Below, piece after piece: positions 25,072 through 58,048 of a DNA stretch of 64,000 nucleotides; position 1 is the first letter of the stretch, and each line of letters opens with the position of its first letter. Where the stretch lies: assembly GCA_039621445.1 (NCBI GenBank), contig CP154954.1, positions 24,564,954 through 24,628,953 on the forward strand, given 5' to 3'. Source of the DNA: Euglena gracilis (taxonomy: Eukaryota). The notes under the pieces were generated by a model. It was not told the origin of the DNA. It searched no databases and was given only the letters and a program-made list of their open reading frames with translations. A program made the position numbers and the translations under genes.

Positions 25072-25472
25072 CAGGAGATTTCTTAAGCTGGAGGGGACCC
25101 CATCCCCGGGGGGTTGAGTGAAATAAAGTTGGGTCCAGCCCGGCCGGAGGCCGGGCCAGCTGGCCGATGGCCCGGACCAGCCAACTGGGCTGCCAGCTCA
25201 CCTATCCCTGCATTTTTTTCCCTCATCACAGATTCCTCCATCACAGCCCCCCAACCTTGATTTAGCTCCATCCATCAAATTTTCGAGAAGGCAAAAATGT
25301 TTTTAGAAAATTTTGTTTTTCATCGACCCAGCCCAGCCCACCCCTCCAGCCCCAGACCCCCCCCCCTATCCCCCGGGGGAGTCCAGCCAGCAGCTCGTAG
25401 CCAGCCAGCAGCCTTTTTGTCAGCCCGAGGCTGGACCCCCCGGGGGGGGGGGAGTCCTTAAGAAAGCCCCTA
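25072..25472. mobile_element. Older copy of the hAT-like MITE at 57537-58048
   Basis: Collinear internal similarity and TTTCTTAAG / CTTAAGAAA subterminal IR; no clear TSD. Confidence 0.7.
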
Positions 25473-31984: not shown

Positions 31985-32862
31985 AACCCCCCCATTTAAA
32001 CCGACCCGTCGGTTTACGACTTTTGGGTTGACGGAAATCCTGGGGGTCGGTTTAGACGGGGGGGTCGGTTCCAGGGGGAGCACACGGCTGGCGGACGGCG
32101 TGACGGAAGCGGGTTGATGTTAGCAAGGCAATTTCAATTGGCAAATGCCTAATTTGGTTGGCCAATTCCTAACTTTGAGCGACAAACGCCTAATTCGGGG
32201 TGTAAATTCTTAATTTTAGTGGCAGATGCTGAATTTTTGGGTGTAATATCCAATTTTTGGTGGCAAATTGTCTAATTTTGGGTGCAAACTTCTAATTTTA
32301 GGTGGTAAATGCCTAATTATATATTTTGGGTGCCAACTCCAAATTTTAGGAGGAAAATGCCCAGTTTGAGGCGCAAACTCCAATTTTGGGTCATCAATAC
32401 TAATTATTCAATGAGCATGGACGCTCTTTCTGTTGATGGCTTCCATTATATTGTGCATGTTAGTCATCCAACTTGCCATGGGTCGGTTTATTTCTTTTTT
32501 TGGTTGAAATTCTGCAATGGGTCCAGGGTTTTTTTTTAGTCTTGGACCCCCTCCCCCGGGGGGGAAGGGGGGGTAGGTCTCTTAGACCCCCTCCCCCCCG
32601 GCGTGGGTGTGGGTGGGTATATCTTTTTCAGCGCCAAAGGCGCCGAAATTTTTGAAAAAAGGTTTTATTTTTAGCATTTTCGGGCAAAAGTGGGTGGGTC
32701 CCCCGGGACCCCCCCCCCTCCCCCGGGGGGCCCCTCCCCTGGGGGTGGGTGGGTGGGTGCCGACCCTCCCCCCCTCCCCCCGGTCTTAAAAAAAAACCCT
32801 GAATGGGTCGGTTTGGAAGGGTAGGTCGGTTTGGAAGGGGGGTCGGTTTAAATGGGGGAGTT
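31985..32862. mobile_element. TA-flanked MITE
   Basis: TIR AACCCCCCCATTTAAACCGACCC / GGGTCGGTTTAAATGGGGGAGTT, with TA on both sides. Confidence 0.75.
32524..32801. mobile_element. hAT-like MITE nested in the previous element
   Basis: TIR CAGGGTTTTTTTTT / AAAAAAAAACCCTG with perfect 8-bp TSD AATGGGTC (32516-32523, 32802-32809). Confidence 0.88.
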
Positions 32863-38200: not shown

Positions 38201-38773
38201 ACACCATGTCGTTGACAACTCCCCTTTTCCAGAACACTACTTGAGGCTTTTCATTGAATGACAGTGGCGTTGAGATGCCATGTCGTTGGCACACACACCC
38301 CGTGTCAACAGCACATAGGATGCCCCCATCTCCCCCCCTCCCCCGGGCGCTTGGCCCGGGCCATGATTGAAGGTAAGGTAAGGTAAGGCCAGTTGGCCAA
38401 CCTGTTGGGGGTCCAAATTTGCGTGTTAAGAATTTTGGTGGCCATGTGCAAAAGGCCGAAGTTAATTTTAGGCGGCCAAGTTTGCATGTAAGGAGGAGGG
38501 GGGCCAAGCACCCAGAGGGGGGGGGCAAGCGTCCAGGGGGGGGAGGCAATTTTGGACAAACCTCCTGCAAGGAATTTTTTTTTGGAAAAACTGCATCGTC
38601 CAAATTAGAGCCCCCTTGGGATTATTCAGCAACGGGCCAAAAAGGTGGACCGGTCCCCTGTTTTGCAGGGTTAAGGCGGGGGAGGTTCGGGGGACTCCAC
38701 GGGGGGGGGCGGGTCAATTGAGTGCTACTTCTAAAATTCCCACCGCTTCGTGCCAGGAACAGAGGCAAACCAT

Positions 38774-39041
<268 letters not shown>

Positions 39042-40490
39042 GACAAACCTCCTGCCAGGCGTTTTTTTTGGAAAAATGGGCATCGTCCAATTAAGGCCCC
39101 CCTGGGGATTATTTCCAGCAACGGGCCAAAACTGGTGGACCGGTCCCACTGTTTGCAGGGTTAAGGCGGGGGAGGTTCGGGGGACTCACACGGGGGGGGG
39201 GGTCAATTGAGGGCTAAAACTTCCCCCGCTTCGTGCCAGGAACAGAGCAAACCATCCCTTTCAGGGGGTATTCACTTGGCCTGACCCCCCCAACTTTTTG
39301 GAGGAAAAAACACCTATTCTGGGAGATGTTCATAGTATTTTCACAGTCTTATGTGATTGAGGGGAGTTTGAGGGGTCCAGCTTTTGGACTTTTGCTGACA
39401 ATCAGTCTTTATTCGGGGGGGGGGGCTTATTTCGAGAGGAGGATGGCCGGGTGGGTACTAAATTCCACACCACGCTTTTCTTCTTTAACTTTGGTGATTG
39501 GCCCTGCACTTGGTCAAATGGCGCCAAGATCGCACAGAGAGAGAGGGCGTTGTTTTTGCCACCCTCCCAATGGCAATAGTGGGTTCTCAAAGCATTGCTA
39601 AGCCTTGGCCGGGGGAGGACAGTTTTCTTCAAGACCTTCTGTTTGAACACAATGGTGCATGTCACGGTGGACAGTTGTCGCCCACACGTGGCCAGCTGGC
39701 GTCATTTTGGGACGGGTGTGCCATAAGCAGTTTCCATGTGTCCAGGGAAAAATGTGCAGCAAAATGTTCCATTTCTTTTCTCAGATGTATGATTTTTTTT
39801 TTGCTTTTTTCTCTCTGATTTCGCGCGTGTTTCGCACAATTTTTTTTTACTGAAAATGCACATTGTCTGCATTAAATGTGCATTTTTTATGCCTCTTTTC
39901 CTGCGTTTTCCGAGCCCCCCCCCCCCCGCTGCCCCTCCACTCCTCCTCACCCCGTGCAGCAACCACTCCAGCCACCGCACCCCCATGCCCAGCCCACCAG
40001 GCGGTGGGGAACGCTGCACTGCCCGGCCTCCTCCTCCTCTCCGCCTGCCGGGTGTCGTGGGTGTGTCGGGGGTGTGGCCTGCCCCTCCGCGGCTTTGGAC
40101 CGGGAGGTCTTCCTCGCCGCGGTCATCGCTGCGGAGGGGCCGCCCCCACTCCCTCTGCCATTCCTCTGCCGTGGACGACCTGCTGGCCCCCGAGGGAGTC
40201 TGAAAGGTCAGTGGCAATGGCCGGTCTGGGCCCCAATTCTCTTCTGGGTGGGGGTATGTTGTGGGGCCAACCCTCACCCACCCCAACGCCCTGTCCCAAG
40301 TTAGCTAAACCACCCAATCTCCACCTGCTTCAACTGCTGCCCAGTTGCTCAAAAAAAACTGGATTGTTCACTCAACTTCAGGCTTCCACCGTTGTTGTTT
40401 TTTACGTTGGGGCTCCAGTTCCTTCCCTCATCCTTCCCATCTTTTTTTAGGGCCGTACAAAGGGCTTTCGTTGGCACTTTTGATTACTAC

Positions 40491-40498
40491 TTATTTGT

Positions 40499-40545
<47 letters not shown>

Positions 40546-40550
40546 TTAAT

Positions 40551-40593
<43 letters not shown>

Positions 40594-40595
40594 TT

Positions 40596-40626
<31 letters not shown>

Positions 40627-40650
40627 TTTTATTTATCTATTTATTTATTT
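40491..40650. repeat. (TTTA)n microsatellite
   Basis: Directly visible. Confidence 0.95.
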
Positions 40651-41836
40651 AGAGGCTGGTTTTTACGAATACTGGGAGGACGTTGGGGGCCGCGCCACGT
40701 GCTGGTTGATAAAATCTGACTGAAAAACGTCCTGGCTCAGAGAGCGATTCCTGGAGAGACTAATTACCGTAGACGAAACGCCCCACACCCGGGGCCGATG
40801 GGGTAGAGGCAGGGCTGCCACAACCCTGGTGGTGGGCAAAGGGGACCCCCGTGGTTTGTAGTGGCCAACCCAGCGTCGACGGACTGTCTGGTGGGCGTGC
40901 AGGGACGCTGCGGTCGCAGTCTGCGGACCCCAGCGCTCCGTGATGCGGTGGCTTCGGTCTACGCCCAAATTCTTTCCCATCTGCCAACCGTTTCGACTAT
41001 TCTCACGCATCGTTCTCGTTGGTCTTTCTTGCACAGCATTCGATGATGGCAGATGGCTCAGCAAAATGCCCGGCAAGAGGGAAGATCCCAATGCAGATGA
41101 AAAGCTGTTCAGATGAGTGTTTCTTCCCCTCCAGAGGTCGCCTGACCTTTCCGAAACAGCAAGTTATTTGACCTTTGAATGAACAATAGCAACACAGCAA
41201 ATGATATTGTTATTGCCTTTCCCCAGCCTGATAATTTTTTTTGTTCGCAAAAGAAATGACTCATTTGCCTTCACAAGGCTGGCCACCCTTCATCCAGACG
41301 TTGCCACCATACCGGATTTTTTGGTCACGAAAATAGTCACGGAATTTTTTCCTTAAATTAAAAATTGAAAATTAAAAATTATCTTTGGATTCCTTTTTTT
41401 TTGCCGCTGTCCAATTTTGTTTCTTCATTTTTCAGCGTATGTACAGCTCCCGCAGGGAGGTAGCCAGCCCAAGTTTCGGGCCCTGCAACCCCCCCCCGTG
41501 GTCCTGAAAGAGATGATTGGTTGATATGCCAGTGCACAGGCATAAAAGTTTGACCATGGCTCAGGTGCTTTCACTTTCAATTAATTGATGTCAATTCATT
41601 AAACACAACCGGACAAGCCTCGAGACAATTGACTGCGAAATGAAAGCAACCACATGAATGTTTAGGAGAGATTTTTGGAAGACGTTTGAGAAATTGAAAT
41701 CAAATTGCCTAGGTTGACGACAGGAGAAATATGCCTGCACCGAGGGGTTGGACATATTTCACCGTCCTAGTAAAAAAAAAAGACGGTAAATGGTCTTAAA
41801 AGGGCCAAAGCAGTCAAAGTGGCCAGAAAACAATTA

Positions 41837-42521
41837 CCCCCCCCCCTTGTCGTACGACCAACCCTCATTTACGACCACCCCCCCCCGGTCACAGGTTGCA
41901 GGTCATGGGGATGTTATGCAGGGGTGGGGGGAATGCAACTTGCTTAATTTGCATTTTTTTGCATAATCAGGTTTTCCCAAAATTTGCATTTTTTTGCAAT
42001 TTTTTGCATTTTTTGCATAAAATATTTTGCCCTGGAAAAAAATTTTGTAGTTGGTTGCCGTATGTTTGGATTTTTTTGCATTTTTTTTGCATTTTTTACA
42101 TAAAATATTTTGTCCTTGAGAAAAATTTTGTAGTTGGTTGGCATATGTTTTGATTTTTTTTGCATTTTGCGTTTTTTTTTGCATAAAAAATTTTGCCCTG
42201 GAAAATTTTTTTTATTTTAGGCAGCAAAGCTCTGTCATATTCCAGCTTTTTCTCAAGGTTTTCATGCAAGTTGCATTTTTTTGCATTTTTTTGCATTTTT
42301 TTGACTTGCATAATTTGAAGGGCCAAGTTGCATTTCCCCCCCCCTGTGTTATGACCACCCCCCCCCGGTCACAGGTTGCCGGTTGCGAACAATTTAACAC
42401 CACCTTACCTACGGCCGCCTCATTTACGACCACCCTCCAGTCACAGGTTGCAGGTCATGGGGGTGTTAAGACCCCCCCCGGTCACAGGTTGCAAGAACCC
42501 GGTCGTACGACAAGGGGGGCG
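41837..42521. mobile_element. TA-flanked MITE, TTGTCGTACGACC TIR family
   Basis: TA at 41835-41836 and 42522-42523, with inverted ends. Confidence 0.8.
41919..42346. mobile_element. Nested CAG...CTG MITE with 7-bp TSD
   Basis: CAGGGG..AATGCAACTTG / CAAGTTGCATT..CCCCTG, with TGTTATG on both sides. Sister host MITEs show the empty site. Confidence 0.75.
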
Positions 42522-43222
42522 TAGAAGCAATCAAAAGCATACCTAGTAGTAGCCGCAAGCCAAAAGCGGCCAAAGGTGGGTGAAATTGGGCAAAGGGGCC
42601 AAAAGTGGCCAAGAGCGCCAAAAATTGTTCAAGTGGGCAAATGACCAAAAGTGGACAAAAGTGGATGAAGTAAGTGAATGCAGATGCTGCAGTGGATGCT
42701 GTGGATGCATATTTCTGAGTGGATGCAGATACCGGAGGTACCATCACCAAAAGCTTCAACGGCGATGCTGGGCGATGCTGGACGAAGCTGGACTGAGCGC
42801 TGGGCGATGCTGGGCCCAAGGGCATGGCTGACCAGAGGAGCTTGCTGGTAACCCAAAGGTCAAACTTGCACTCCCCCTGCGGTTCTGAGTCACCAGACGG
42901 CATCCTGTATGGGTGTCATTTACTGGCATTTTTTCAAAAGAGTACCAAAATAATAATTTTAGTATTATTTTAATTTATTTTATTATTTTGTTTTCAATGG
43001 AACTGGAAACCAGCCTCCGAGGAGCCTCCACAGAGCTTTCGCGGCGGCTGCTCCAGGTAACCAAAGCCCAGGTGGCCCTTTTTGTTGTGTTTTGTTTGTT
43101 GTGTTGTGTTTTTAGATTGAGTCGAAAGGCACCCCCCCCCACGGGGTCGGTCCGAACGCCACTCCCCCCCCCCCCCCGCTGCAGACCTCACGTGCCCTCC
43201 GCCCCCCTCCCCCAGGCTGAGG

Positions 43223-43512
43223 ATGGGCTGCGCTGCCTCGCACGTCACGGCCGCCACCCGGTCAGGCCCCCTCGTGGCCTCCCCGGCGGAGCCCTCACCA
43301 GCAGGCTCTAGCCTGCCCCCCAATCGATGTGCCGAACTTTTCGCACAACTGTCCTCGTCAACGTTGAATGGTATAATGACCCAAAATAATGTTTAATGTA
43401 TCATTCATACCTCCCCCAGGCATGAGCAGACGCATGCGGGCGCGCATGACAGCACACAAACACAGTTTAACCCAAGCCGTAACCCCAAAAAGCCCTAACC
43501 CTGCACAAACAC

Positions 43513-43565
<53 letters not shown>

Positions 43566-46500
43566 CACACACACACACCATACAACCATTTAGTCACTGG
43601 CCGGCCCTCACCTGGGGGTGGGTGACTGGTTGTTTTTTTTTGATTGGTTTTTGGATCGTACCTTGGGGGGGCAATAAACCATTGAATTTATCTAGCGTCT
43701 TTGGTGCTGAAAAAAAATTGGTCATATTTTTTCCACCTTTGTGGTCAGTTTTCCATTGGATTCCAGAGGTCCACCCCGACCAGGCACCTATGGCCGACCA
43801 GGGCCGACCAGGACCGACCAGGGCCGACTTGTGGTTGGCCGACCGAAGGGGAATGGATGAAGGAATTCGGCAGCTTTCCCTCTGGACCAAGCACCTCTGA
43901 TGATGCTGGGCGGTGCAGGGCGATGCAGGGCGATGCTGGCCCGGCAGCATCGACCACGGGTTACCGCGGGTTTCAGGATTGTCATAGGTGGGTTGCCGAC
44001 CGCAGCCGACCGCAGCCGACCGCGCAACTTTTTTCCAATTGATGTCATATTTTCAGTGAGAATGAGGAATAAGGCTCATTTTTTATCCCAGATTTTGAGA
44101 TTTTTTCTGGCTCATCTGGCTCATGTTGTCACTTTTGGCTACTTTTGGCCGCTTTTGGCCATTTTAGGTCTCTTTTGTCCCTTTTGGCCCATTTGTCACC
44201 ATAATTCACCAATTTTAACCTATTTTGACCATTCTTGGCCACTTTTTGCGCATTTCTTGTAATTTTGGGCCATTTTGTCCTGCTCTTTGGCCATTTTTGA
44301 CCATTTAAAGCCATTTTCGACCTTTTTTTTTGTTATATTGCCCATTTTTTTGGTCTCTTTTTGGTCCAGTTTGACCATTTTCGAGCATTTTGTGCCAGGT
44401 GCAGCTGTTGGATTTGCAAAAACAGTGGCCAAAACAGCTTTTCTTTGGCCTTTGCTCACTTTTGGCCATTTTAACTATTTTCAGCCGACCACAGTCACTG
44501 ATTTGGCAAATATTGGGCTAATTTGGGTCAACATGAACATATTTTATGGCATTTTGGCCATTTTGCTCCCTTTTGGTAATTTTGGGTCATTTTTCACAAT
44601 CTTTTTTTCTGTGACGGATACCCCCACCTATGGCCGACTATTTGCCGACCAGGGCCGACCAGGGCTGACCAGGGCCGACCAGGGCCGACCAGAGCACCAA
44701 AATGGGAAGTGACCATAGGTGCCTGACCCCTACTCCAAAGGCTCTTGTGTCTGACTGGTTTTTGGACTGGAAGTGACCCCCAGGATCGGTGAAATAACTG
44801 TATGTATACAACAACACACAAAACACACAACGCACACAACACGCGCAACACGCGCAATGCAAACAACGCACAACCCAAAACTGACAACGCACACACACAC
44901 ACACACACACACAAGGTAGAAAGAGCCGATGCCAGGATTTTGCTACTAATGAACCCTCATCCAGGACCTCGACAGGGTGGCAGGCCCTTCCTCTGCAGCA
45001 GACCTCCCAATCGGGCTGACGATCATCCTGGAGACCAACAAGGAGGGCTTCGTGCAGGACGAGGGGGAGGAGGAGGAGGAGGAGGAGGAGGAGAAATCCC
45101 CCAGCCAGGCCATCCTAAACAGCAGAAACCAGTAGTTGATTTTTAACTACAAATTTCACGATCCAAACTTAATCCAGCCCTCGAATCAAACATCCACGTG
45201 TCGTTTCTTTTTTGCCGGGGGGGGGGGGTTCGTCCGAACACACACACTCTGGGACGCACTCTGCCACCCAAGGATGGATATTGACATTGCGTTTGGGGGG
45301 GGGGGGCGATAAAACCCGTTATATTAACCCCCCCCTATATCCTCGATGGATCCGAGAAAACCGACACGGAGGACAAACTGAGGGCCATTCTGGGGCCGTT
45401 TTGGGTCATTTCCGACCAGCTTTGGCCCATTTTGACCCGTTCCAGGTTCCTCCTTGTGGCCACCGCCCCCCGAGAGTGGTGACGGTTGCCGCCGTCAGCC
45501 GGCCGGCGGGCCTGCGCCCATCAGCCTCCGCACGCTGTCCGAGGCCACGGGGCTGAGCGCCTCCCCCTCCTCCGCGTCCCTCAAGCCGCCCCTGCGGCGG
45601 GCCACGCTGCTGCGGTTCCGGGTCCGGGCCACCCCGGGGACCCCGGCCCAGGGAGGTGCGGGGCGGGGGCACGCGGCGGCCAAAAGTGGTTGGCGAGGGG
45701 GATCGGCCGCCGGGCTGCCGATGGGCATTTCAATTTGCATTGGGCGGCAATGAGTTTGATAAGCACCATCTGCGGTGTTGTCCCCGATGGATGGGGGACC
45801 CGTTCAGCACCCTTTTTCTCTCCTCTCTGAAATTCCATTCCAATGCAGTGCCCCAACGCAGCATATCATGAGGATGACAACCATCACATCGCATGTCTTT
45901 CCCGGTCAGACCCTAACCCCCCCCCCGGAGGGGTCCAGTTTGGGCCAGCCTGGCGAAAGTTGGACTGGACCGATGGAAAGTCGGCACAACGCGCCAAATT
46001 TTTCCAAAAAGGGGGTCAAATGGCCAAAATGGCATTTTTGGTGGTTTTTGGGGTCTGCACCTCCCAATTTTGGCTGAAAGTGCAAACCCGAGTGGTTTGG
46101 GCGTTTTGGGGCATTTTTTTGGGTCCCACCAGGTACAGCCAGCACCTTTTTTTTCCCAGCCGGCCCGCGAGACACCCCCCCACGGGTCTTTGAGAAAACC
46201 GCTGATCCGGGTTTCAGAGCCCCCGAAACATGCAATTGCAGTTTACTTCATTTGCAGTGGTTGGTTTTGGGGTGAGAAAATGGATGCCTCCCGAAGCCGA
46301 AATCTGTGTTCTGTTGTGCGTCTTGTGAATGCGCATTGTGGTGATGCGTTGTGGTGTTGCACGTCTGAGTGATATTTCCTTGCCGGCCTGCTTTGCACAA
46401 ATTGTTGTGCTACCTGCACCCCCCTGTCTGCAGGGCAGACAGCAAACCACCGACTCCCCAGCCGTTCACTTACAAAATCTCTGCCATGGGCCCGGCACGT

Positions 46501-49500
46501 GCGTTTGGTTGCATCCATGTGACTGTGATGGCGCCCACAAAGTGCCAAGACTCGGGTTGCAACACATGTTCAGGTATGTGTGTGTGGTGGCCAGACCATT
46601 GGTTAACACCTGTCCCACCCCACCCCCCCGGGGGGGGGGGGTGACTGACTGGGCTTTTCAGAGTGACTGACTGGTTTTTTGGCCGTGACCAAGCACCAAT
46701 AGCTAAAATGGCCTAAAATGGCCTAAAATGGCCTAAAATGACTTTTTGACCCCCTATAGGTGGGGGTCCCTAAAATGGCCTAAAATGGCCTAAAATGGCC
46801 TAAAGTGGCCTAAAATGGGAAAAATTTTGTTGCACAACAATTTTTTTTGTGAACAGCTGTAGCCATTCAGGTACTGACTTTTGATGTCTTTTGTCAATCT
46901 GGACGGCGAACAGTGGATTTGGTGGAGGAGCACAGCCCGCAAGGCCCTTTTTTTTTATCCCAACTAATAATAGTATCAGTCCCCAAATCCACAGTCCCCA
47001 AGCTTCTTTTGGTAGCTGAATTTTAAAGGTTTGGACAGCATATTTTTCTTACTCCCATCCTTTTTTGGTGTGCAACGATGTCTGTTTCGCAAATAATGAA
47101 ACAGTGCAAAATTGGAATGAGGCGTGGGGAAAAAGACAGAAAAAAAGATGAAAGATGTTAGAAAAACTCAATTGAAAGAGGTGTATCATTAGGTACTGGG
47201 AATTTCTTCAAATCATGAACCAGCACAATTTTGGGGATTTTCCAAAACCACAAATAATCACGCCGAATGATCAAATGACCTAAACAACTACAAACAATTA
47301 TGAATGAGATTCTCTCTTATTTATGAACATGTTCAGAGGGTTTTCTTTTAGTATTAAGTTTTTCTCCAAGGGGGAAACCAAACACGGAGAAGAGGAATTG
47401 TTTTCAGCTTTGCCCTTTGATCTCTGCAATCGCCCAAAAAGCCCCAAATGGCTTTTTTGAGAGTTGTTTCACTTCCCAAGTGCCCACAGATAAGTCCCTT
47501 TCATTTAATGATGGGTTATGTGGCTGCAACCCGATTTAACGTAAAACCTGGGGGTCCCCTTCTGATTTCACTAAACCCCCCCTTCAAAACCATAAGTGCT
47601 GATACCCCAGATTTTGGCTCCCCTCCTCCTTCCATTCACACTTGGTGCCTTAATTTGTGTATCTTGGCCCCAATTTTTTTTCCAAAAATTTTGCCTTTTT
47701 TTTGTACAAAGTCTGCTGAAAGTTTGACACTCGTGCAAACTTGCTCTCCCATCATCACGTCATAGTGATCCAGTGTTCATGAATTTTGCATGCTTTTTTG
47801 GATGTACATTTCTCATTACTGAATAAGAGAAGGTTCGCACACGTTATTATGCAGTTTTCGGGACAAAAATGACGCAAAATTATGATTTTCAGAACCCCCA
47901 CCTATACCTTAAAATGACCTAAAATGGCCTTAAATGGCCTAAAATGGCCTAAAATGGCCTAAAATGGGGAATTTTTTGGGCTTGATTATAGGTGCTTGGC
48001 CGTGACCACCCTCCGCCCGTGGGGTGGGGTTGGCCCGAAATCACCCAAAAGTGGCTGAGTGGCCAACTGGAAAATTTTTGGCCAAAAAATGGCCTTGAAA
48101 GTCCAAAAAGTGACTGGTTTCCCCGAGTGGCCGACCCCCCCCCCCCCCCCCCCCCCCCCCTTGCCCCCCCCCCTCCAGCCACCGCAGCCCCCCCCCCCCC
48201 CCAGGATATGCTGTGGTCCCGCCCGGGGGGGTCAAGTGACTGACTGGCTTGGCCGAAAAAAAGTGACTGACTGGTTTTTTCGGAGTGGAAAGTGACCCCC
48301 CTTCCCCCCCCCCCCGGGGGTCGCTAAGCAATGGTGTGTGTTGTGGCCCCTCGCTCTGTCCGCCGGGCTGGGGCTCGCTCCGCCGCGGCACGCCCTCCAC
48401 CCCACGGGGAACCAACCCCTGGGGGTCCAACCGGCCACCACCTTCATTCGTGCCAGCAGCTCTCAGCCGAGCTGCACTGCGGGCGCTGAAATGATGGGTG
48501 GGCCAGCGTGGCACAGCCGCGCTGAGCCGAAATGATTGGCAAAGAACTGTTGCGCAAGCTACTGGTAGTTTTTTTTGAAGAGTGTCAAAGGCCTGGAGGG
48601 GAGGGTCCGGTCCGACCCCCCCCCACCTCCATGTATCGAACCCTGCCTTGTCTTGCCCCCCCCCCCAAAACCACCCTCCCCTCCAGCAGCAGGCATCTCC
48701 CGAGGCTGCTGGGTATGGGCTGGCCGTGGGGGCCGGCGGGGCCCGTGCTGTAGCGTGGCCCACCTCCCCGAGGCCTGCCCCAAGGCCACGCACCTCGCCC
48801 ATCGCCCCGCCCAGGCTGGGGTACGGTAACTCGTTTGTGGACCGCTGGGGGCCATCCCCGAACCCCCCCCACCCCGCTTGATGGGCATCATGTGATTGGT
48901 GGTGGGTTTGTTGTGGTGGGTTGGTTCATTTCAATGTATCGAGTGTTGGTGTCTTCCATTGGATAAGAAACAACATCAATCACCACCCCAAACCGCATGA
49001 TATGACTCCTTTTTGCTTAATAGGTCGCATCCCTAGTAACTCCCTCATCAATCTTCCTTCAAGTTCATGGTCATCGGTGGTGGGCTCTACATTTAGCCTT
49101 TCTTGGGTAAGTTTTTTTTTCCTGGTTGTGCCAATTTTGGGATTGCTCAGCCAATTTCAACCGTTTTGGCCCATTTTTGGGGAATTATATGGTCACCTTG
49201 AAGTATTTTTCACAAAAAATTGGTCGAAAATACCAAAATGCACCACTGCTGCCCCGTGCGCTACAAGGCTGCTGAACGTGGACCTCAAAACGGGCCACAA
49301 TGGTTGAAAATGGATCAGTTTTTGTGTGCAATAATTTTCACCTCCCGGGGGGGGATGGGTACTGGCCGAGCCCCTGCCGGAATTTTTTTGATTTTTTTGA
49401 ATTTTTGAATTTTGACCCCAAATTTCACCCCCAATTTTGGGTCCCCCCAGCCCCCCCCCCCCAGGGGTGGGTCCGGACCCCCCTCCCCCGGGTCCTAAAA

Positions 49501-49680
49501 TTACACCTCTGAATCCTTTAGACTTTTTTGAGACAAACCTTCAGACAGTTCTCAAGTCGGAGTATCCTCCCGCCGCCTGCCCGCACCCGCATCGCCCCCC
49601 TGGTCTCCCCCCGGCCCGGCTGCCCCGCCAAGGCCTACGCCACAAGCCGGCGGCTGTCCAAACTGGAACTCACCGCCTGA
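43223..49680 (+). CDS. Multi-exon host gene, paralog 2
   Basis: Pyrimidine tract plus AG (43214-43215), then ATG 43223 (MGCAASH). Exons at about 44965-45102 (..LETNKEGFVQDEGEEEEEEEEKSP), 45520-45655 (ISLRTLSE..LLRFRVRATPGTP), ~48755-48808 (VAHLP) and ~49557-49680 (RTRIAPLVSPRP..RRLSKLELTA-stop). Matches paralog 1 block by block. Confidence 0.7.
45103..45519 (+). other. Nonconventional intron in paralog 2
   Basis: C|AGCCAGGCC ... GGCCTG-CGCCC|A. CAG at +4, CTG at -8, Y|R junctions, and in-frame SP|ISLRTLS. Confidence 0.75.
46592..48338. mobile_element. Composite TIR element (GTGACTGACTGG and AAAATGGCCT repeats) in an intron of paralog 2
   Basis: Ends CAGACCATTG / CAATGGTGTG; flanks TGTGGTGGC / TGTTGTGGC match at 8 of 9. 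Related sequence lies at about 61965-62800. Confidence 0.5.
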
Positions 49681-51418
49681 CCGCCGCGCCTTCCGCTCGC
49701 CCTTCTCCCGGTGCCCTGGACCGCCCCTCCGCCTCTCTCGGGCATGCCCCGTCCTTCCCCCGTTGGTCCGCACTTAGGCGGCCGGATTCGCATTTAAGCT
49801 TTTTTATGTTGATTTGCGCATTTGTGCAAATGTGCGAATTTTTTGATTTCGGCTGTGAAGGTCAGGGGGGTTTGAAAACACGGCGACCAGAGAGTGCGAA
49901 AAATGAGCAAAATTCTGTCATTGACGGCACGACCCCTGGGAGAAAAATGGTGGTTTTGGGTGGTCCGAAAACGGGCTTTGCACGTCGAAACCCCTGGACC
50001 TCCCCCCCCCCCCCGGAAGCGAAAACAATGCAAAAAAGCGACACAGGAACGGGACCTTTGCTGCCCTTGTTGCTCTTTTCGGCTGTCTCCCCGGGTATCC
50101 CCAAGCTGCCGGCAGTGTGCGTCCTGGGTGTTTGCCGGACTACTTTGCTTGCGGCGCCTTGGTGTGGTGTTTTTGGTGTGTTTGTTGTTGTGTTGGTGCG
50201 TGCATTTGCGCAAATAAACACAATTTTGCCCTTCAAGGATTGGGCTTTGGCGCCCATGAATTGACGCTGTCGATAAACGGCGTGGCATAGGGGCCGTGAC
50301 AGCACGGACCAGAGGGTCGTCCAGAAACATGGTCGGTTTGCCACACTGTTTGTCGACGGGACAAGTAAATGCGCGAATAAACAAAAATATGTTTATGCGC
50401 GCATTTGCGCCCATCAACACAATTTGTGTTGGTGGGCGCAAATGGGTGCATAGACACAAAGAAGAAGGGCGTGACAGACACACAACCGTCAAACTCCGGC
50501 AGCAGATTTGGTTCATTTTCGCATTTGCGCACATCGCATTTTTTTGTGGTGCAAATGCGCAAATGAACCGCATGAATAATTTTGTGCAAATTGCATCTGG
50601 TTCATTTGCGCATTTTAACCCACAAAGAAAGTGACGCGCGCAAATGCTCAAATGAACCATCAATGGAGGAGTAAAAAGCGGCTCCATTTGGCCCTCCAAC
50701 AGCTACCCTTAGTGGCTTCTGAATGGGTTCAACCCAAACAACCGCACCGTCTTCTTCAACGTCAGGTATTAGGGGGTTAATTCTACTCTGGTGACAGGAA
50801 AGTTAGAGATAGAGGATCTCCTGAAGGTGGGTGCGCAGCTACCCAATAACGGCGCACGTCTGCCGGCACCGGTTTTAGGATCCCAAGGGCCCTGCCGCTA
50901 ACCAGCGGCCTGGGCTCCGCTGCTGCAGCCACATCAGCTGCCGGGCACCCACCAGACCGGAATCAACCTCCCCGGTGCAACAACACCCAGCTTTAGCGAC
51001 CACGTTATTCCCCGCAACCGGGGCGTGAGACTGGTCTGACAACGTGGTGTTAGTGCGTGGCAACCGGCAGCCGGAGAAAGGTAGCCCTGAAGCACCCCAT
51101 TACTTTGGGCGAAGTGGTGAACCTTTACCAATGGCTTGGTTGCATGAAAGCGGTTGGACTCGCTCCCCACAAGTTATGCACAAATTGGTGTGTTTTACAT
51201 TTGTCAAGGGGAAAATGATGGAGAAAAACCAGAAAACGGACCCCGGCCCGAAACATCCTGGGTATTTCAGGTGCCAAATTTTGTCTTCTTGTGACGCAGC
51301 ACTGTTGCAGGAAAGGTGTCGAACAGTCACAGGTCGTTGCACGTCATCAATTCATTACATTTAACTTCCAAGCGAATGAGGCCAAAACAGCCGGCCTTGT
51401 GGGCGGGGAACAGCAGTA

Positions 51419-51854
51419 CCCCCCCCCCTATGTCCAACGACCCCCCTATGTCCAATGACCCCCCCCCCCCCCCCCGGTCAGAGGACACCTTTTCGGAGGT
51501 TTGACCAAATTTTTGGTCCCGGTGTGAAGCGCCGGGACGAAAAATTTTGCCCAAAAATTGGCCAAAAATTTGGCCAAAGTGCCATTTTTGACACTTTTTT
51601 GACAAAAATTTGTCAAAATTGCCCAAAATTTTCAGCGCGAAGCGCCGGAAGGGAAAATTTGGGCATTTTTGGGTGGGTTGGGTACTCATGGGGAAATTGG
51701 TGGGTACCCGGGTACCCACCAATTTTCTTTTGACCCCATGTCCAACGACCGCCCCCCCCCCCCCGGTCAGAGGACACCTTTTTGGTCACTACCCTATGTC
51801 CAACGACCCCCACCCGGTCAGAGGTTACCGGTCATTGGACATAGGGGGGGGGGG
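51419..51854. mobile_element. TA-flanked MITE nested in the cargo element
   Basis: TIR C-run-TATGTCCAACGACC / GGTCATTGGACATA-G-run, with TA at 51417-51418 and 51855-51856. Confidence 0.85.
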
Positions 51855-51881
51855 TACAAATGTACACACGTAAATGCGCAC

Positions 51882-52528
51882 TGGCGAGAGCGGAACACAG
51901 CATTTACAAGGTACGCTGTGTCTGAACAAGCAAGCAAGGTTGACAGAGATGAAGAAGATACATCAGAGTATTCACTGGGAGAGTACGAAGTCGATCAGCA
52001 AGTCGATTGCGTACTGTACGAAAGAGGAAACCAGACACGGTAATCGACATGGCTGAAGAGCTTGACTTGACTGCGCCCTACGGCTGGCAGTTGGCGGTGA
52101 TGAACATCATCGCCAGGCCTGTATGCAAGAGAAGCATATACTGGTTTTGGGAACCCGACGGCAACGTTGACAAATCGGAGCTTTGCAGTTGGCTGGTGGC
52201 TAAGCATAATGCACTCATGCTTTCGGGGAGACCAACTGATATGTATCATATGATATCCAAATTTCCGAAAAAAAGGAAGCTCATGACTATCGATCTCCCA
52301 AGATCCGCACGAGAGTGTGTGAATTATGAAGCTATCGAACATATCAAGAACGGCCTAGTATTTAGTTGTCAGGTACAGTTTAACAGACCTCACGTGATAG
52401 GCTTTTCAAACGCAAAACCATTTACACACCAGATGAGCACAGATAGATGGTACGTCATCGATATCAGAGAACTCATGAAGAACCCGAAGTCGCACGACGA
52501 AATAATTCAACGTAGTAAGTTAGCTTAA
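51882..52528 (+). pseudogene. rep: Endogenous CRESS-DNA virus Rep (HUH endonuclease plus SF3 helicase), 5'-truncated and frameshifted
   Basis: RCR motif II (GTQHLQG) and motif III (YCTKEET), then a frameshift near 52040. Walker A WEPDGNVDKS (G to D), Walker B TIDLPRS, YEAIEHIKNG, motif C HVIGFSN and Arg finger STDRW. Motif I is absent. Confidence 0.9.
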
Positions 52529-53113
52529 TAGTTAGATCAAAAGAACTGTTGGTAGTATCAGCAGTAGCTACATAGGGTATAATATAACACATATGCGCTG
52601 GACTCTCATCGTATCGTGATGCAAACTTATCAGATGTCTTCACCGTCATAGGTTTCTCACCGGTAAGCTTTGACACAGACAGATAACCAGTCAAACGCAG
52701 ATTGCTCTTATTTCCTAAGGAGTTACTTCCTCGAACCCATCGGTGATTTTTCTTCTCCGTGGCTAGCTCAAGCTGAGTATCAGGATCATTTACATGACTC
52801 AAACGAACACCGAGCCAGAAGGCTCTCTGTGATTGACAGCTGGTGCACGAAATATCGTACTTGATTCCAAACACTCTGTATCCCAGATAGAACTGAGGCA
52901 TCCATTGATCAAACAGGTAGGCTTGATGACCATTGCCATCAGTGCGTGGCATGTAAATGGACGTCTGGTACTGTAAGCCCGAGTTGATTATACTGGAATT
53001 CGCAACGTAGTGTTGGATGTCGACATAGTTGAGTTTAGTGAAAATCCTATCAGGCAGGCCGCGAGTAATATATGAGGTAGATGGACGTGCCGTAACCTTA
53101 CGCCCGAAAGTGC
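52473..53113 (-). pseudogene. cap: CRESS-DNA virus capsid-like ORF, 5'-truncated, otherwise open
   Basis: About 210 open codons convergent with and overlapping rep. GLPDRIFTKLNY, YRVFGIKY and FDLTIKLTYYVELF resemble CRESS jelly-roll capsid motifs. No ATG and no basic N-terminal arm. Confidence 0.75.
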
Positions 53114-56100
53114 AAATGCGCACACAAACACACCTATCACGTTCAAAAGCCTCGTAGGTCCGTGGTAATAATCAGTGTGTTTTAAGACAGATATGTTGTT
53201 CGTTGCACGCCATTGCACAAACCATCCACATACCAGTTTCCCCAAGACGTTGGTGCGCACAAATGCGCCCATAAACAAATTATGTTTGTGCGCTCATTTG
53301 CGCCCACAAACATGTATTTTTACCTTCAACGTTTTGCATTTTATTTGTGCAAGTGCGCAAATAAACATATTGTGTTTATTTGCGCAAATACGCGCATAAA
53401 CACACATCAGTTGCATGACGGCTGACGTAGTCTGTAGCATCTGATCTAATAAGGCTCCGTGTGTTCCTACGGGCGGCTGCAGTATCCAAGCCAGTTCAGG
53501 CACCGTGACAGCACCAGTGCCAATAGTCGTAACAGTGGGTGTGTGCTTCCAACCTGTTTGATGCACGAGAGCACCAATCTCTCCCTCCACCCCCTTCACG
53601 TCATTTGGTAAGCGGCATTTGCACCAAACCTCCTGGAGTTGATCCCCTTCAACACAGGGTTGCCACAGTTCATAAATTGTTTTCCGTCTGTCAGGGTACA
53701 GGGTCCCAGAAATTTCGTAAAAATTGTAAATTTGCGCAAATGCGCCCATTTCAAAGAAAAAACCCTTGCGAATCCTGCCGCCTAAGCCGCACCCACCCCG
53801 CCCCCTCCCTTTCGCCTCCTGGGCCGCCCGCTCCTCCAATCGCATGCACAGCCGTCTCAGCCGCACCTCCGCATCCGCCATCCAGTGGAATCCGGTGGAC
53901 GTGCAAGTCAGCCCTCAGCCTCAGCCCATCGCCGGGCAATGTCGTTCCAGGGGGGGGGGGGTTGCCATTGTCTGGGCCCAGAGACTGTTGGAGAGTTGTG
54001 TCTGGCTGGACCCCCCACCCGTCGGGTTCCCTACTACACGTTGTTCCCTACTACACGTTGTTCCCTACACGTCGGGTTCCCTCCTCCCTCCCTCACCCCC
54101 CTCCCATTTTTTGAGACCACAAAATTACCCCCCCCCCCCCGGTCTTCGCCGAGCCCCCCACCCACCGGCAAAACCCGGGCTGGACCGAGAAATTTTTGGA
54201 GCAAGGCGCCGAAATTTTTTGGAAATGGGGTCCAAAATTGCTTCAAAAAACGGCATTTTTGGGTCGTTTTCGGATTTCAAATTTTGGATAAAAAAATGCC
54301 AACTGGCTGGGTTTGGGCTCTGGGGGGTATTGTTTGGGTACCAGCCAGGTCCAGCTCCCAGCCGGCCGGACCCCCCCCCCCGGACCCTCCACCCCTGGGG
54401 GGGGGTCCAGCCAGCACCTTTTCCAGCCGGTCCGCGGGACCCCACCCCCCGGGGTGCTTAAGAAAACCCCCAGTGGTGGCTGGCTGGCCGACCGGGTGGG
54501 TGCCAAATCGGACCCCCTAGGTCGTGAGAAAGCTTGGCTCCTCACGCCCGTCGGGTTGGCTTCCCAACCCAAGTCACCCCATTCCTCCTGGGAAGGAATG
54601 GAGGGGGCGGCCCCCGGATCTTTTCGACGCCCCTCCCCCCTTTGGGCCGCGCCTCTGCCATGTGTGCCTCTTGCCTGTCGGGGTCCCGCCGCTTGCCCCC
54701 GCCCCCCTCTCCCGGCTTGCCCGGTTTGGTCTGTATGCTCGCTCTGACGCTCTGAAGCGGCTGCAACGATCGGCGGTCGGAGGCGGGGGAAGGTTCTGGG
54801 TGGGGCCGGGGCTGGAAGGAATCCCTGGACCCTATGGTGGTGGGCGGGAGCACACAATCACTTGGTCGTTGGCCAACCCCCCTGAGGGGTGGGTGACTGA
54901 TTTTTTTTCCAGATTGGACTGACGTTTTCTTTTTTTTTTGGCCCGGTCGACCCCTTCCCCTGAGGGGGGAGGGGTCGACAGAAATCACTTAAGTGGACAG
55001 GCATCGAAGGCGTGGAAAAATTCCTCACCCACAAAAATTTTTGTGTCCAAAATGAACTGCATTACTGTACCACAATTTCTGCCCTAGGTGGGGGTTCATA
55101 GAATCATAATCTGGGTTTTTCTTTTGTCCCAAATCCGCATCAATTGAAACAGTTGCATGGTGAGGGTGGACCCCTGTCCAGGTCGGTGGGGCGCGGTCCA
55201 ACCCCCGCTTCCCATTTTTCCGAGCCGCCGGTTCTTAGGTCAAATCTTTCCTCGTGAACCGCCATACGGTGGGTTGGGCCGGGTTTCCTGTGCAGACAGC
55301 GGTGGGTGGGGCAAACGCCTGTGCGCACGTCGCCCAAGGCCGACGCCCCCATCCTCCTGGGTGGCCGTCCGTGCGTCTGTGTGGCCGCCGTGCCCCCCGC
55401 TCTGTCGGGCGGCGCGGCTTCCCCACAGCCAAGGCCCTCCTGCTCCCCATCCGGCCGCTTGTCCTTCTGACTGTTCTGTTGGGGGATTGGGGCATTGTCT
55501 GTGATTGATTCCCTGTTGTCTGACACCCTTTTTTTAAAAGAAATAATCTTTGGTGATCTTTGCGAGCGGCCGAGCTCAGGTAACGGCCGGGGGCGGTCCC
55601 GACCTAAATTTCAAACTGCCACATTACGCCTCCAACGGCTGAGGCATTCGTTTCGTAAGGGCGTCTTTTTTGATGCCAAAGGCTCCATGAAGCGAAGGCC
55701 GCACAAACGCCTTATCCCAACCAGAATGATGGTCCACAAAACACTCAATGACTTTCGTCACATTCCCAATTGCAGGGCAGTGTTGGCGGCGCCAAACCTC
55801 GGTTGCTTGTCCTCCCTCCGCCACCACCCCCCTCCCTCGCCTCGCCTCGGACTGCCTGGCCTCCCCGCGGCCGGGGTCTGGGGTCGGCCTGCCACACTCT
55901 GTCCCACCCCTCGGCCAGGCTTCCAGATCAGATTTTTACCCAAGGCCAATTTGCATCATATTTGAACGTTTTCCCTTTTTTTTGCCAACAAATTCCATAC
56001 ATTTGGCATCAGTATGTACAAAAATCACAAAAAACCTTGGTTTGAGACTTTTTTTGAAAAAAGGAAAATGTGAATGCCAGTTCAAGACAAGCACCCATTT

Positions 56101-56375
56101 AATTTGCATATTGGGAAAGACCATCTCCTGGAAAAAATCCTCTCCTCTCCACAGCTGCCTCCGCAAGTTTCTCCGCAAGCAATCCCTCCCGAAAGGCAAA
56201 GTCTTTGGCCACAGTCGTTGTTCACCCTCCACCCTTAACCCTGATGCCGTCCGTGCTGGAAGAAGTGCCTGGTTGAGTCAGCAAATGGATGGTTATTTTT
56301 CTGGTTCTGTTGAGTTACGTCCTCTTTTCCTCTTCTGCCTACACAACGTTGGATGTGTTTCTGAGTTTATATGTA

Positions 56376-56557
56376 CCTCCCCCGGGCGCTTGGCCCCCCT
56401 CCTCCTTACATGCAAACTTGGCCCCCCTAAAGTTGGCCTTTGGCCTTTTGCACATGGCCGCCAAATTTATTAACATGCAAATTTGGCCCTAAGGTTGGCC
56501 CCCCAGCCTTACCTTCAATCATGGCCCGGGCCAAGCGCCCGGGGGGGGGGGGGGAGG
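56376..56557. mobile_element. TA-flanked MITE, CCCGGGCGCTTGGCC TIR
   Basis: TA at 56374-56375 and 56558-56559; CCTCC.../...GGAGG termini like those of the pogo element. Confidence 0.85.
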
Positions 56558-56565
56558 TACGATAT

Positions 56566-56616
56566 CAGCCTCCAACTAAAGGGACCCCCCCGGGGGGTCC
56601 CTTTAGTTGGAGGCTG
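56566..56616. repeat. Perfect hairpin with 25-bp arms
   Basis: CAGCCTCCAACTAAAGGGACCCCCC-C-GGGGGGTCCCTTTAGTTGGAGGCTG. Confidence 0.95.
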
Positions 56617-56785
56617 CCATTTACGCATGCCTCCGCCCAGGCGCTTGGCCCCCCTCCTCCTTACATGCAAATCTCGCCCCCCTAAAGTTGGCCTTTGGCA
56701 TTTTGCAAACGGCTGCCAAAATTCTTGACATGCAAACTTGGCCCCCCTGAGGTTGGCCCCCCTGGTGGGAGAGGTATATGTACAC

Positions 56786-56818
<33 letters not shown>

Positions 56819-57536
56819 TGTATATTTAATATTTTGCAATAATTATTTTGTATTAACCCCCCCTCAATTAGAAGCGCCTCAGGGCTATTATTCGGTCAGT
56901 TTGTGTCAAACCCGGGGGTTGCTTCTTATTGGGTCGAAGCGCCGAAAACCTTCGGCGCTTCCCGCCGGGTGTAAAAAATCAGGCTTTTTGGACAAGCGTC
57001 CTGTGTCCCAACCCTCCCTCACCGAGAAACCAAAGGATTTCTACACCTTATGACCAACTTTTTTGCATTTCACCCCAGATATGTTTCCATTTGACGCCAA
57101 TTTGTTTGCACTTAACCACAAAAAAAGTGCGTGTTTCACCCCAATTTGTTTGCATTTCATCACAAAAATGTCTGCACACTATCCCAAAATGTTTGCACGT
57201 TTTCAGAAAATTCTTGTACTTGGATCTGGTTTTTTGCACAATTTCCACCAGTCGGAATGCATTTTTTTACATTGATAACATGTGGGCTTTTTTTTTCATT
57301 GTGCAAAAAAAATACGACGCAGTGCACAAAACTTTTTGCAGTTGTGACCAAAAAACAATGCGGTTGAAGGTCATGGGCAAAAATTCTGACACGCTTTGGC
57401 AAATATTTTTGCCAGGCGTGGGCAAAAAAATTTGGTTGCAAGGTGTAGGATTGTGGCCAAAGACCCGATCCATCTTGCATTTGTGTGTTTGCAGTTTGCC
57501 AGTGCTTGAATATGTGTGTCTGCCCTGGGGGGGAAA

Positions 57537-58048
57537 CAGGGAATTTCTTAAGCCGGAGGGTACCCTACCCCCCGGGGGGGGGTCCAGCCAGCCAGCAGCT
57601 CAAATCCAGCCAGCAGCCCAAATTCGGGCTGGGAGCCCCCCCCCCCCCGGGGGGCGAGTGAAATAAAGTCGGGTCCAGCCCGGCCGGAGGCCGGGCCAGC
57701 CGGCCGAAGGCCGGCCCAGCCGGCCGCAAGCTGGCCAGCCAACTGGGCTGTCCAGGTCATTTATCCCTGCATTTTCCCCCCTCATCACAGCCCCTCCATC
57801 ACAGCCCCCCAGCGTTGATCTAGCTCCACCCATCAAAATGTCGAAAATGGCAAAAATGTGTTAGAAAATTTTGTTTTTCCTCGACCCAGCCCAGCCCAGC
57901 CCGCTCCAGCCCCGGACCCCCCCCCCTCCCCCCCCCACCCACCCCGGGGGGGGGGGTCCAGCCAGCAGCTCAAATCTAGCCAGCAGCCTTTTTGCCAGCC
58001 GGAGGCTGGACCCCCCCCCCCCCCGGGGGGTCCTTAAGAAATTCCCTG
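57537..58048. mobile_element. hAT-like MITE
   Basis: 16-bp perfect TIR CAGGGAATTTCTTAAG / CTTAAGAAATTCCCTG with 8-bp TSD GGGGGAAA. Confidence 0.88.

Follow-up and report, generated by a model that had tools for sequence, protein, structure and literature searches.

The 417-nt sequence at 45103–45519 of the window (the whole stretch of 64,000 nt analysed here) is an ordinary, truly spliced euglenid nonconventional intron, the second of its host gene. The 6/8 match between the octamers flanking its paired ends reflects the junction consensus of the intron class (C-rich, with a pyrimidine followed by a purine, and with C at octamer position 8) and not a demonstrable relic of a target site duplication (TSD). 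Spacers of 3 nt and 5 nt are experimentally required for nonconventional splicing (PMC12501133), and elements that end in CAGG...CCTG and are flanked by 8-bp TSDs occur in the same window; therefore, the birth of nonconventional introns from MITEs of this kind is mechanistically coherent, a route to which we give about an even chance. The combined reading, of an ordinary class member with consensus flanks and a coherent route of birth from MITEs, seems to us quite probably correct.

Intron 2 and its host gene

The host is a six-exon gene encoding a 176-aa protein with no assigned function; the name of the matching transcript (eukprot:EG_transcript_16557, here P0001) points to Euglena gracilis. 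Exons were placed by tblastn. The frame joined from 43223–43309, 44989–45102, 45520–45645, 46432–46482, 48752–48808 and 49585–49680 is open, with no internal stop, and 175/176 of its residues are identical to those of P0001. The features of the gene, of intron 2 and of one intron further downstream are as follows.

43223–43307 (to 43309 in the other register), + strand: exon 1, from ATG (MGCAAS...); tblastn with P0001, RNA-only joint 43307->44987
43308–44986, + strand: nonconventional intron 1, 1679 nt; in register 43310–44988, CTG at +4..+6 and CAG at -8..-6; flanks 5/8
44987–45102 (from 44989 in the other register), + strand: exon 2; RNA contigs, P0001
45103–45519, + strand: nonconventional intron 2, 417 nt; direct reading, spliced frame, RNA contigs
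45106–45108, + strand: CAG at +4..+6 of intron 2, opening the 6-nt perfect end stem CAGGCC
45512–45514, + strand: CTG at -8..-6 of intron 2, closing the partner GGCCTG
45520–45645, + strand: exon 3; RNA contigs, P0001
45646–46431, + strand: nonconventional intron 3, CAGGGAGGTG...CACCCCCCTG; no slide, flanks 1/8
46432–46482, + strand: exon 4, RADSKPPTPQPFTYKIS; P0001-guided
46483–48751, + strand: nonconventional intron 4, pairing through ATG/CGT and not CAG/CTG; flanks 4/8
48752–48808, + strand: exon 5; P0001
48809–49584, + strand: nonconventional intron 5, CAGGCTGGGG...CCGCCGCCTG; flanks 5/8
49585–49770, + strand: exon 6; coding stop TGA at 49678–49680, then 3′ UTR
55913–58278, + strand: nonconventional intron, GGC / CAGGCTTCCA...TGGCAGCCTG / CCGGG across its borders; RNA-contig exons 55787–55912 and 58279 onward

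All five introns of the coding sequence and the downstream intron are of nonconventional type. The downstream one has no slide, its flanks match at 2/8, it holds the element 57537–58048, and its exons belong to a candidate common transcript. In two of these six verified introns the ends pair not through CAG/CTG but through CTG/CAG or ATG/CGT. An exon at 45835–45942 (and others), guessed from motifs as the missing 107–108 nt, proved wrong; P0001 shows two small exons.

RNA evidence came from one raw RNA run and from two runs presumed to be RNA by index only. Three raw RNA reads show the joint 43307->44987, as do contigs from two RNA-type runs; the DNA run does not have it. The joint of intron 2 is absent among the 15 read-level joints listed of 795, so the evidence for its 5′ boundary is the match to the protein together with the frame: the junction falls between KSP and ISL of P0001, and a retained intron would bring in an in-frame TAG at 45133–45135. 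The exon-3 piece of the RNA-type contigs (runs X15, X17) begins at 45517, a position that agrees with the 3′ boundary once the slide over the shared CCC is counted. As CCC and A are common to both junctions, the boundary slides by 3 nt to the left and 1 nt to the right, with equivalent registers running from 45100–45516 to 45104–45520. The borders are AG...CC in register 45103–45519, GT-AG appears in 0/5 equivalent registers, and C is followed by A at the 5′ as well as at the 3′ junction, a pyrimidine before a purine at both.

The preliminary description had assigned CAG at +4..+6 and CTG at -8..-6 to this intron and had counted six identities of eight in the flanks at 45098–45522; direct reading confirms both. 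The octamers are CCCCCAGC (45098–45105, before CAG) and CGCCCATC (45515–45522, after CTG); as TIRs, the intron ends match at 8/12. The end duplex reaches -19.5 kcal/mol against -14.3 ± 3.2 kcal/mol for shuffles, a modest margin only, with 30/500 shuffles as low. In the minimum-energy fold of the whole intron the ends are paired (z = -0.76). No Rfam family was found in a scan of the whole 64-kb window, and a snoRNA or other known RNA within intron 2 was rejected accordingly.

Intron 2 resembles the euglenid nonconventional introns described before (PMC3935182, PMC4770533, PMC12501133): non-GT/AG borders, the CAG and CTG positions, the 3- and 5-nt spacers, the pyrimidine–purine junctions, the sliding direct repeats and the removal from mRNA. 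Nothing essential differs; intron 2 has a short end stem (six perfect pairs) of only modest stability. Such introns make up 71.8% of those in E. agilis, and 84.4% of E. agilis introns are slidable through direct repeats at their junctions (PMC12501133). CAG(G)/(C)CTG was found in 33/55 introns and G/C at +7/-9 in 31/55 (PMC4770533); positions +5,+6/-8,-7 are reported to be always paired, with compensatory changes. A purine is stated to be required at the start of the downstream exon, and a review describes the excised introns as circular, with no lariat form (PMC11282704).

Flanking octamers of the verified introns

In the six verified introns the two flanking octamers of the same intron match at 5, 6, 1, 4, 5 and 2 of 8 positions, 23/48 in total. 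Octamers paired across different introns match at 3.57/8 on average and at no fewer than six positions in 3/30 pairs; as many as 259 of 720 permutations reach a total of at least 23. The 6/8 of intron 2 has P ∼0.01 on plain base composition and P ∼0.09–0.10 against the flanks of other nonconventional introns of the same gene (3/30; binomial 0.085 at the cross-pair rate). Since flanks of different introns are almost as alike as those of one intron, there exists a consensus of the class. The flanks of intron 2 had been taken for a decayed TSD, with a comparison of the 8 nt before +4 and the 8 nt after -6 proposed as the check; run on the six introns, this comparison does not place own pairs above cross pairs, and flanks of unrelated introns match almost equally; the decayed-TSD reading is not supported here. 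Six shifted registers gave totals of 13–18, all below the in-register 23; given this difference, and with n = 6 introns, a weak true TSD signal may be present in the flanks.

Two caveats had been attached to that reading. The one on C-rich flanks agrees with the C-rich consensus. The other, that an intron at 12218 keeps no trace of a TSD, concerns a site that is doubtful as a nonconventional intron; alignment of a homologue fits a GT-AG intron at 12225–12613 better. Nine protein hits included no same-species protein across the site, and for the 12.5-kb ORF a search of proteins found no relative of greater length.

Elements with intron-like ends

Five elements or element copies bear on the question; no strand is assigned to any of them.

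32524–32801: MITE, TIR CAGGGTTTTTTTTTA (15 nt, perfect), ends CAGGG...CCCTG; perfect TSD AATGGGTC (32516–32523, 32802–32809)
57537–58048: MITE, TIR CAGGGAATTTCTTAAG (16 nt); perfect 8-bp TSD GGGGGAAA (57529–57536, 58049–58056)
43781–44725: MITE-like element in intron 1, TIR CAGGCACCTATGG (13 nt); TSD ACCCCGAC/ACCCCTAC, 7/8; subterminal GGCCGACCAG repeats
20021–21648: fourth element, CAA-ended, TIR CAAGCACCTCTG, subterminal GATGCTGGGC repeats; perfect 8-bp flanking repeat CTCTGGAC
25072–25472: older copy of the 57537–58048 family, 81% identity over 381 nt; right end decayed to CTA, flanks 5/8

The first two had been named in the preliminary description, and their perfect 8-bp TSDs are real; the element at 43781–44725, absent from that description, is a third CAG-ended MITE. 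An 8-bp TSD accompanies all three CAG-ended elements with long TIRs, perfect in two and 7/8 in one. Where CAG..CTG pairs are joined by a perfect stem of at least 10 (n = 9), flanks match at 6/8 or better in 3/9, against 0/9 in a shifted control; the flank duplications of the MITEs are beyond chance. A 19-bp satellite in the window swamps inverted-repeat searches; our own TIR/TSD finder, also swamped, found the element at 20021–21648. The first 20 nt of the element at 57537 gave a single metagenome match, a chance one inside a bacterial gene, and a second 30-mer from a loose end had no match within the 64-kb window.

The arithmetic that an intron of this class removes the CAG...CTG unit together with 3 + 5 = 8 bases, one TSD copy, works out on the three elements with perfect 8-bp repeats: with one cut 3 nt ahead of the element and the other 5 nt beyond it, exactly one copy is restored at 32524–32801, 57537–58048 and 20021–21648. 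Placed in the 3/5 register, MITE ends pair as strongly as those of real introns (-20.9, -27.0 and -33.6 kcal/mol). The stem starts with CAGG in 4/6 verified introns and in 3/3 MITEs.

A sequence link between the introns and these elements was not seen: no terminus of the six verified introns is related to any element in the 64-kb window or has a second copy there. Intron 2 and its 100-nt ends have no non-self match there, the window being small and the power of the search low; membership of intron 2 in the window's MITE families was rejected, as there is no similarity. Depth in the DNA run is 291.5 over 44871–45537, against ∼105–170 in contigs elsewhere that are presumed single-copy and 10^5–10^6 in MITE-bearing bins, and by this measure intron 2 is near single-copy. 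The suggestion that the MITEs are themselves introners finds no example here: no MITE in the window was seen as an intron, and 43781–44725 and 57537–58048 are nested within larger introns (intron 1 and 55913–58278, respectively), while 32524–32801 lies outside the stretch covered by read mapping.

Attribution of the elements to hAT, also made in the preliminary description, is not supported by a transposase: 10 long ORFs from the window, scanned with Pfam, gave no family and hence no hAT transposase among them. Merlin elements, with 8-bp TSDs, are the DNA transposons that the one relevant paper found (PMC8101967) reports for E. gracilis. As hallmarks of hAT, PMC3014272 gives 8-bp TSDs, YARNG ends and TIRs such as CAGGGGTCC..., with TIRs beginning TAGGC also tabulated. 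Three elements of the window share with hAT MITEs (maize Ds1, PMC3260210; anole hAT-N, PMC3014272) the 8-bp TSDs, TIRs of 13–16 nt and, in two of the three, CAGGG (YARNG) ends, and 43781–44725 and 20021–21648 have subterminal short repeats in common. They differ in that no transposase partner was seen, that the terminal motif is CAGGG in 2/3 MITEs and CAGGC in one, and that their TSDs do not fit the hAT pattern of nTnnnnAn type.

Origin of nonconventional introns

According to the published cis-code, CAGGCC at +4..+9 of the pre-mRNA would pair with GGCCTG at -11..-6, and this pairing would bring the two junctions together; the RNA would then be cut twice, 3 nt ahead of the helix on the 5′ side and 5 nt past it on the 3′ side. 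By the same 3/5 rule, an exonic CAGG...CCTG element with an 8-bp duplication would be excised with no scar. One could speculate that nonconventional splicing is a precise excision at the RNA level, adapted to a single type of DNA transposon, that every exonic insertion starts out as a scarless intron, and that bursts of MITEs made most of the roughly 70% of Euglena introns that are nonconventional; we offer this tentatively, as a view rather less probable than its negation.

A MITE origin of these introns has been proposed since 2013, in a paper which also stated that, at the time, no transposable element was known from a euglenid genome. We found in the literature no report of hAT in Euglena and no relevant annotation of Euglena transposable elements. 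The warning that a mobile-element origin had been suggested before was well placed, and the new part is narrower than had been supposed: the MITE origin, the TSD-like repeats and even a machinery mitigating (neutralising) insertions are already in print. The sum '3 + 5 = 8 = TSD length' and the hAT assignment we did not find there; they are a sharp and testable refinement, unproven here.

In E. agilis ACOI 323, the junctions of the recently gained, strain-specific intron 4 of gapC carry direct repeats of eight nucleotides (PMC4770533), as a fresh insertion with an 8-bp TSD predicts; species and gene are other than ours, and the likeness is one of repeat length. The idea that a transposon with TIRs and a TSD becomes an intron, the TSD helping to define splice sites, is shared with the introners of Micromonas and dinoflagellates and the MITE-derived noncanonical introns of Fritillaria. 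As reviewed in PMC11282704, the spliceosome removes such introns, which exist in many near-identical copies, whereas intron 2, near single-copy by depth and with no second copy within the window, follows a pathway of non-spliceosomal appearance; introners are described there as co-opting one dinucleotide, whereas in the proposal considered here the whole TSD length (3 + 5) would be consumed.

That nonconventional introns are hAT-type MITE insertions removed with exactly one 8-bp TSD, intron 2 showing a decayed one, is possible, at somewhat less than an even chance. The two experimentally fixed spacers adding up to 8, the presence in the window of MITEs bounded by CAGG...CCTG and flanked by 8-bp TSDs, the CAGG stem start common to 4/6 introns and all three MITEs, the repeats of the gapC intron, the slidable majority in E. 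agilis and the published hAT hallmarks all agree with it, as do the pyrimidine–purine steps at both junctions, expected from two copies of one target site. It is weakened by the octamer permutations, by the two introns with no slide and flanks of 1/8 and 2/8, by the pairing other than CAG/CTG in 2/6 introns and by intron termini unrelated to the window's MITEs; both MITEs on the read-covered stretch lie in introns and are not introns, the scanned ORFs show no hAT transposase, and the TSD pattern is not that of hAT. The 3/5 geometry and the similar octamers could, on the other hand, be dictated by what the splicing enzyme needs, with any resemblance to transposon ends a coincidence, which we regard as unlikely, if by no means far-fetched. 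Cuts at 3 and 5 nt on a notional extended CAG:CTG helix would be staggered by 2, with a 2-nt 3′ overhang, and a dimeric double-strand-RNA nuclease reading the same pyrimidine–purine context twice would fit. The near equality of cross-pair and own-pair flanks points in this direction; so do the conservation of pairing rather than sequence (CTG/CAG and ATG/CGT here, the always-paired positions and compensatory changes published) and the required downstream purine and the circular excised introns. Such an enzyme accounts for the difference (2) but not for the sum (8), and it leaves unexplained both the CAGG...CCTG ends with 8-bp TSDs of genuine transposons in the same genome and the eight-nucleotide repeats at the freshly gained gapC intron.

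It is improbable, in our estimate, that the elements and any intron precursors were moved by a non-hAT superfamily with 8-bp duplications, such as Merlin. For E. gracilis, PMC8101967 describes two families of Merlin, both making 8-bp TSDs, and we found no paper reporting hAT in Euglena; however, the same paper gives Merlin TIRs a conserved terminal 5′-GG, against the CAGG and CAAG ends here, and the YARNG ends and subterminal repeats are hAT-like. Least probable of all, in fact very improbable, is that the direct repeats at junctions arose when double-strand-break repair inserted filler DNA, with no transposition. This was proposed by the authors of PMC4770533 for the gapC repeats, but it predicts neither a fixed repeat length nor conserved inverted ends, and the window has true transposons with duplications of exactly 8 bp and intron-like ends.

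For a birth of nonconventional introns from MITEs, specific candidates are present in the window, namely elements whose CAGG...CCTG ends are of the intron type and which are flanked by 8-bp duplications, and the rule 3 + 5 = 8 makes the idea testable with a yes/no outcome in the published knock-in assay and by a genome-wide statistic. If it is true, RNA processing in the host and one family of transposons correspond base for base, and the consensus of pyrimidine, purine and C at both junctions would be the target preference of a transposon, read twice.

The gene at 43223-49680 and its introns

The window DNA is eukaryotic and rich in repeats. Translation of 45520-45645 (42 residues) yielded one protein, P0001 (176 aa), at 100% identity; the EG prefix of its source name, eukprot:EG_transcript_16557, is read as Euglena gracilis. 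Coding exons were placed by tblastn of P0001 on the window together with motif look-up.

Coding exons of the six-exon gene
43223-43307, +, coding exon 1
44987-45102, +, coding exon 2
45520-45645, +, coding exon 3
46432-46482, +, coding exon 4
48752-48808, +, coding exon 5
49585-49680, +, coding exon 6

Joined by script, the exons read through in one open frame, and its translation agrees with P0001 at 175 of 176 residues. The sole mismatch, at residue 166 (49645 region; S in the window, G in P0001), points to allelic or strain variation, as do numerous A<->G and C<->T mismatches of the sequencing runs with the window. This + strand gene has five CDS introns, all nonconventional, with no GT-AG intron among them. 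The protein matching P0001 is of low complexity and starts with MGC, a possible N-terminal acylation motif; the protein search gave no Pfam domain for it.

Runs were mapped to 38201-58200: X21 (raw RNA), X15 and X17 (contigs, RNA by a guess from the run index) and X1 (DNA). Three raw reads of X21 carry the joint 43307->44987, as do contigs of X15 and X17; DNA run X1 does not show it. Contig pieces span 45517-45645, 49584-49770, 54617-54766 and 55787-55912. The joint of intron 2 (45103-45519) is absent among the 15 joints listed of 795; the exon 3 contig pieces begin at 45517, the position reached when 45520 slides across the CCC common to exon 2 and the intron end, and retention of this intron would bring in an in-frame TAG at 45133. 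A loose contig end after 55912 maps to 58279, hence there is a further intron, 55913-58278 (I7). The RNA contigs contain two segments with no assigned position, one of 33 nt between 49770 and 54617 and one of 77 nt beyond 54766; they would imply more 3'-UTR exons, with approximate boundaries, in 49771-54616 and 54767-55786. The intron ends adjoining these pieces have no CAG/CTG at canonical positions.

Intron 2 carries CAG at +4..+6 and CTG at -8..-6, and its flanking octamers, CCCCCAGC and CGCCCATC, agree at six of eight positions. On re-reading, everything the preliminary description said of the sequence (intron motifs, flanks, two MITEs) holds. Intron 2 itself is verified as a nonconventional intron of the ordinary kind.

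Flank similarity

The 6/8 match had been taken as the relic of a TSD, one 8-bp copy of which would be removed together with a hAT-type MITE. Under plain composition P is ~0.01 for such a match; the empirical rate among ~46,000 CAG..CTG pairs is 0.0065-0.009, the same as in a shifted control. Plain composition is, nevertheless, the wrong null, because junctions of nonconventional introns have a common consensus. We anchored six verified introns on their own +4/-6 pairs and compared the flank octamers.

Flank matches of verified introns
I1, 43310-44988: 5/8
I2, 45103-45519: 6/8
I3, 45646-46431: 1/8, cannot slide
I4, 46483-48751: 4/8
I5, 48809-49584: 5/8
I7, 55913-58278: 2/8, cannot slide

The own-pair sum is 23/48, a value reached by 259 of 720 permutations. 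Cross-pairs, with the left flank of one intron and the right flank of another, have a mean of 3.57/8 and at least six matches in 3 of 30 cases; at the cross-pair rate the binomial P for at least six is 0.085. Once this null is used, the 6/8 match is no evidence for a relic at intron 2. Six shifted registers gave sums of only 13-18 versus 23 in register, thus the similarity is register-specific and class-wide rather than individual to one intron. With n=6, a weak true TSD signal may still be present in the flanks.

Transposon-like elements and the introns

The transposons of the window are real.

Transposon-like elements
32524-32801: MITE, ends CAGGG...CCCTG, perfect 15-nt TIR, perfect 8-bp TSD
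57537-58048: MITE, ends CAGGG...CCCTG, perfect 16-nt TIR, perfect 8-bp TSD
43781-44725: added element, 13-nt TIR, TSD 7/8
20021-21648: added CAA-ended element, 1.6 kb, TIR CAAGCACCTCTG, perfect 8-bp flanking repeat CTCTGGAC, subterminal GATGCTGGGC repeats
25072-25472: older copy of the 57537-58048 family, 81% identical, right terminus decayed to CTA, flanks 5/8

The older copy illustrates the pace at which ends and TSDs decay in the absence of selection. Since 20013-20072, including CTCTGGAC, recurs at 96.7% identity inside 43781-44725 (at 43880-43939), this 8-mer may belong to a larger repeat and not be a TSD. Perfect stems of at least 10 occur at nine CAG..CTG pairs, three of which have flanks matching at 6/8 or better (shifted control, 0/9). 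A 19-bp satellite, consensus ATGGCCATCATGACCAATG, occupies 17284-18687 (74 copies, 87% matches); because of a partial palindrome in the unit, it floods inverted-repeat searches.

With cuts placed 3 nt ahead of an element and 5 nt past it, exactly one TSD copy is rebuilt at both perfect-TSD MITEs and at the CAA-ended 20021-21648. In this 3/5 register the pairing of MITE ends is as strong as that of real intron ends (-20.9, -27.0 and -33.6 versus -19.5 to -36.3 kcal/mol), and the stem starts with CAGG in four of six introns and in all three CAG-ended elements. On the other hand, I1 pairs via CTG/CAG and I4 via ATG/CGT; thus pairing, not transposon end sequence, is conserved. As to the MITEs being introners, 43781-44725 and 57537-58048 sit inside I1 and I7 and are not themselves introns; 32524-32801 lies outside the stretch covered by read mapping (38201-58200). 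Compared with the window elements, intron ends showed no relation, microsatellite aside, and the introns and their 100-nt ends have no relatives elsewhere in the window with the same exception. DNA-run depth is 291.5 over 44871-45537, ~105-170 on contigs presumed single-copy and 10^5-10^6 in MITE-bearing bins.

A MITE origin of nonconventional introns, as the preliminary description had cautioned, is already published: it is proposed in PMC3935182 and restated in PMC6221363, PMC11170887, PMC12621601 and PMC11282704, the last terming junction repeats TSD-like. PMC12501133 gives a share of 71.8% for nonconventional introns and of 84.4% for introns able to slide, finds spacers of 3 and 5 nt to be required, and suggests that the machinery mitigates transposon insertions. 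PMC4770533 describes a new intron, confined to one strain, that has direct repeats of eight nucleotides; its authors attribute the repeats to break repair. They also give CAG(G)/(C)CTG as intron end motif and ask whether the sequence of origin left it as a 'fingerprint'. For hAT hallmarks we relied on PMC3014272 and PMC3260210; Merlin with 8-bp TSDs occurs in E. gracilis, according to PMC8101967. In the main texts of open-access papers, we found neither hAT nor the sum 3+5 = 8 tied to nonconventional introns. The broader hypothesis, an origin from insertions of 8-bp-TSD transposons, sharpens an idea already in print; three things lend it real but indirect support: the transposons seen here, the spacer lengths known from the literature and the 8-nt repeats reported for a young intron. 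We consider it a serious possibility, while leaning slightly against it; existing data sets and the published knock-in assay could decide it.

Other loci

A 191-aa open frame at 51953-52525 (+) has a P-loop-like stretch, …WFWEPDGNVDKS…, and no Pfam match at E <= 0.01.

The multi-exon gene at 11801-13647 (+) has no Pfam match; its nine database relatives include proteins 43-54% identical on large contigs of other organisms. The proposed nonconventional intron at 12218-12378, cited earlier as a counter-example keeping no TSD trace, reads into a stop. The alignment of the homologue P0004 (~41-44% identity) breaks off at 12218 and starts again at 12623, with exactly five residues unaligned; a GT-AG intron at 12225-12613 gives exactly five residues (TR + VHR) and fits this alignment, so that the intron is probably conventional.
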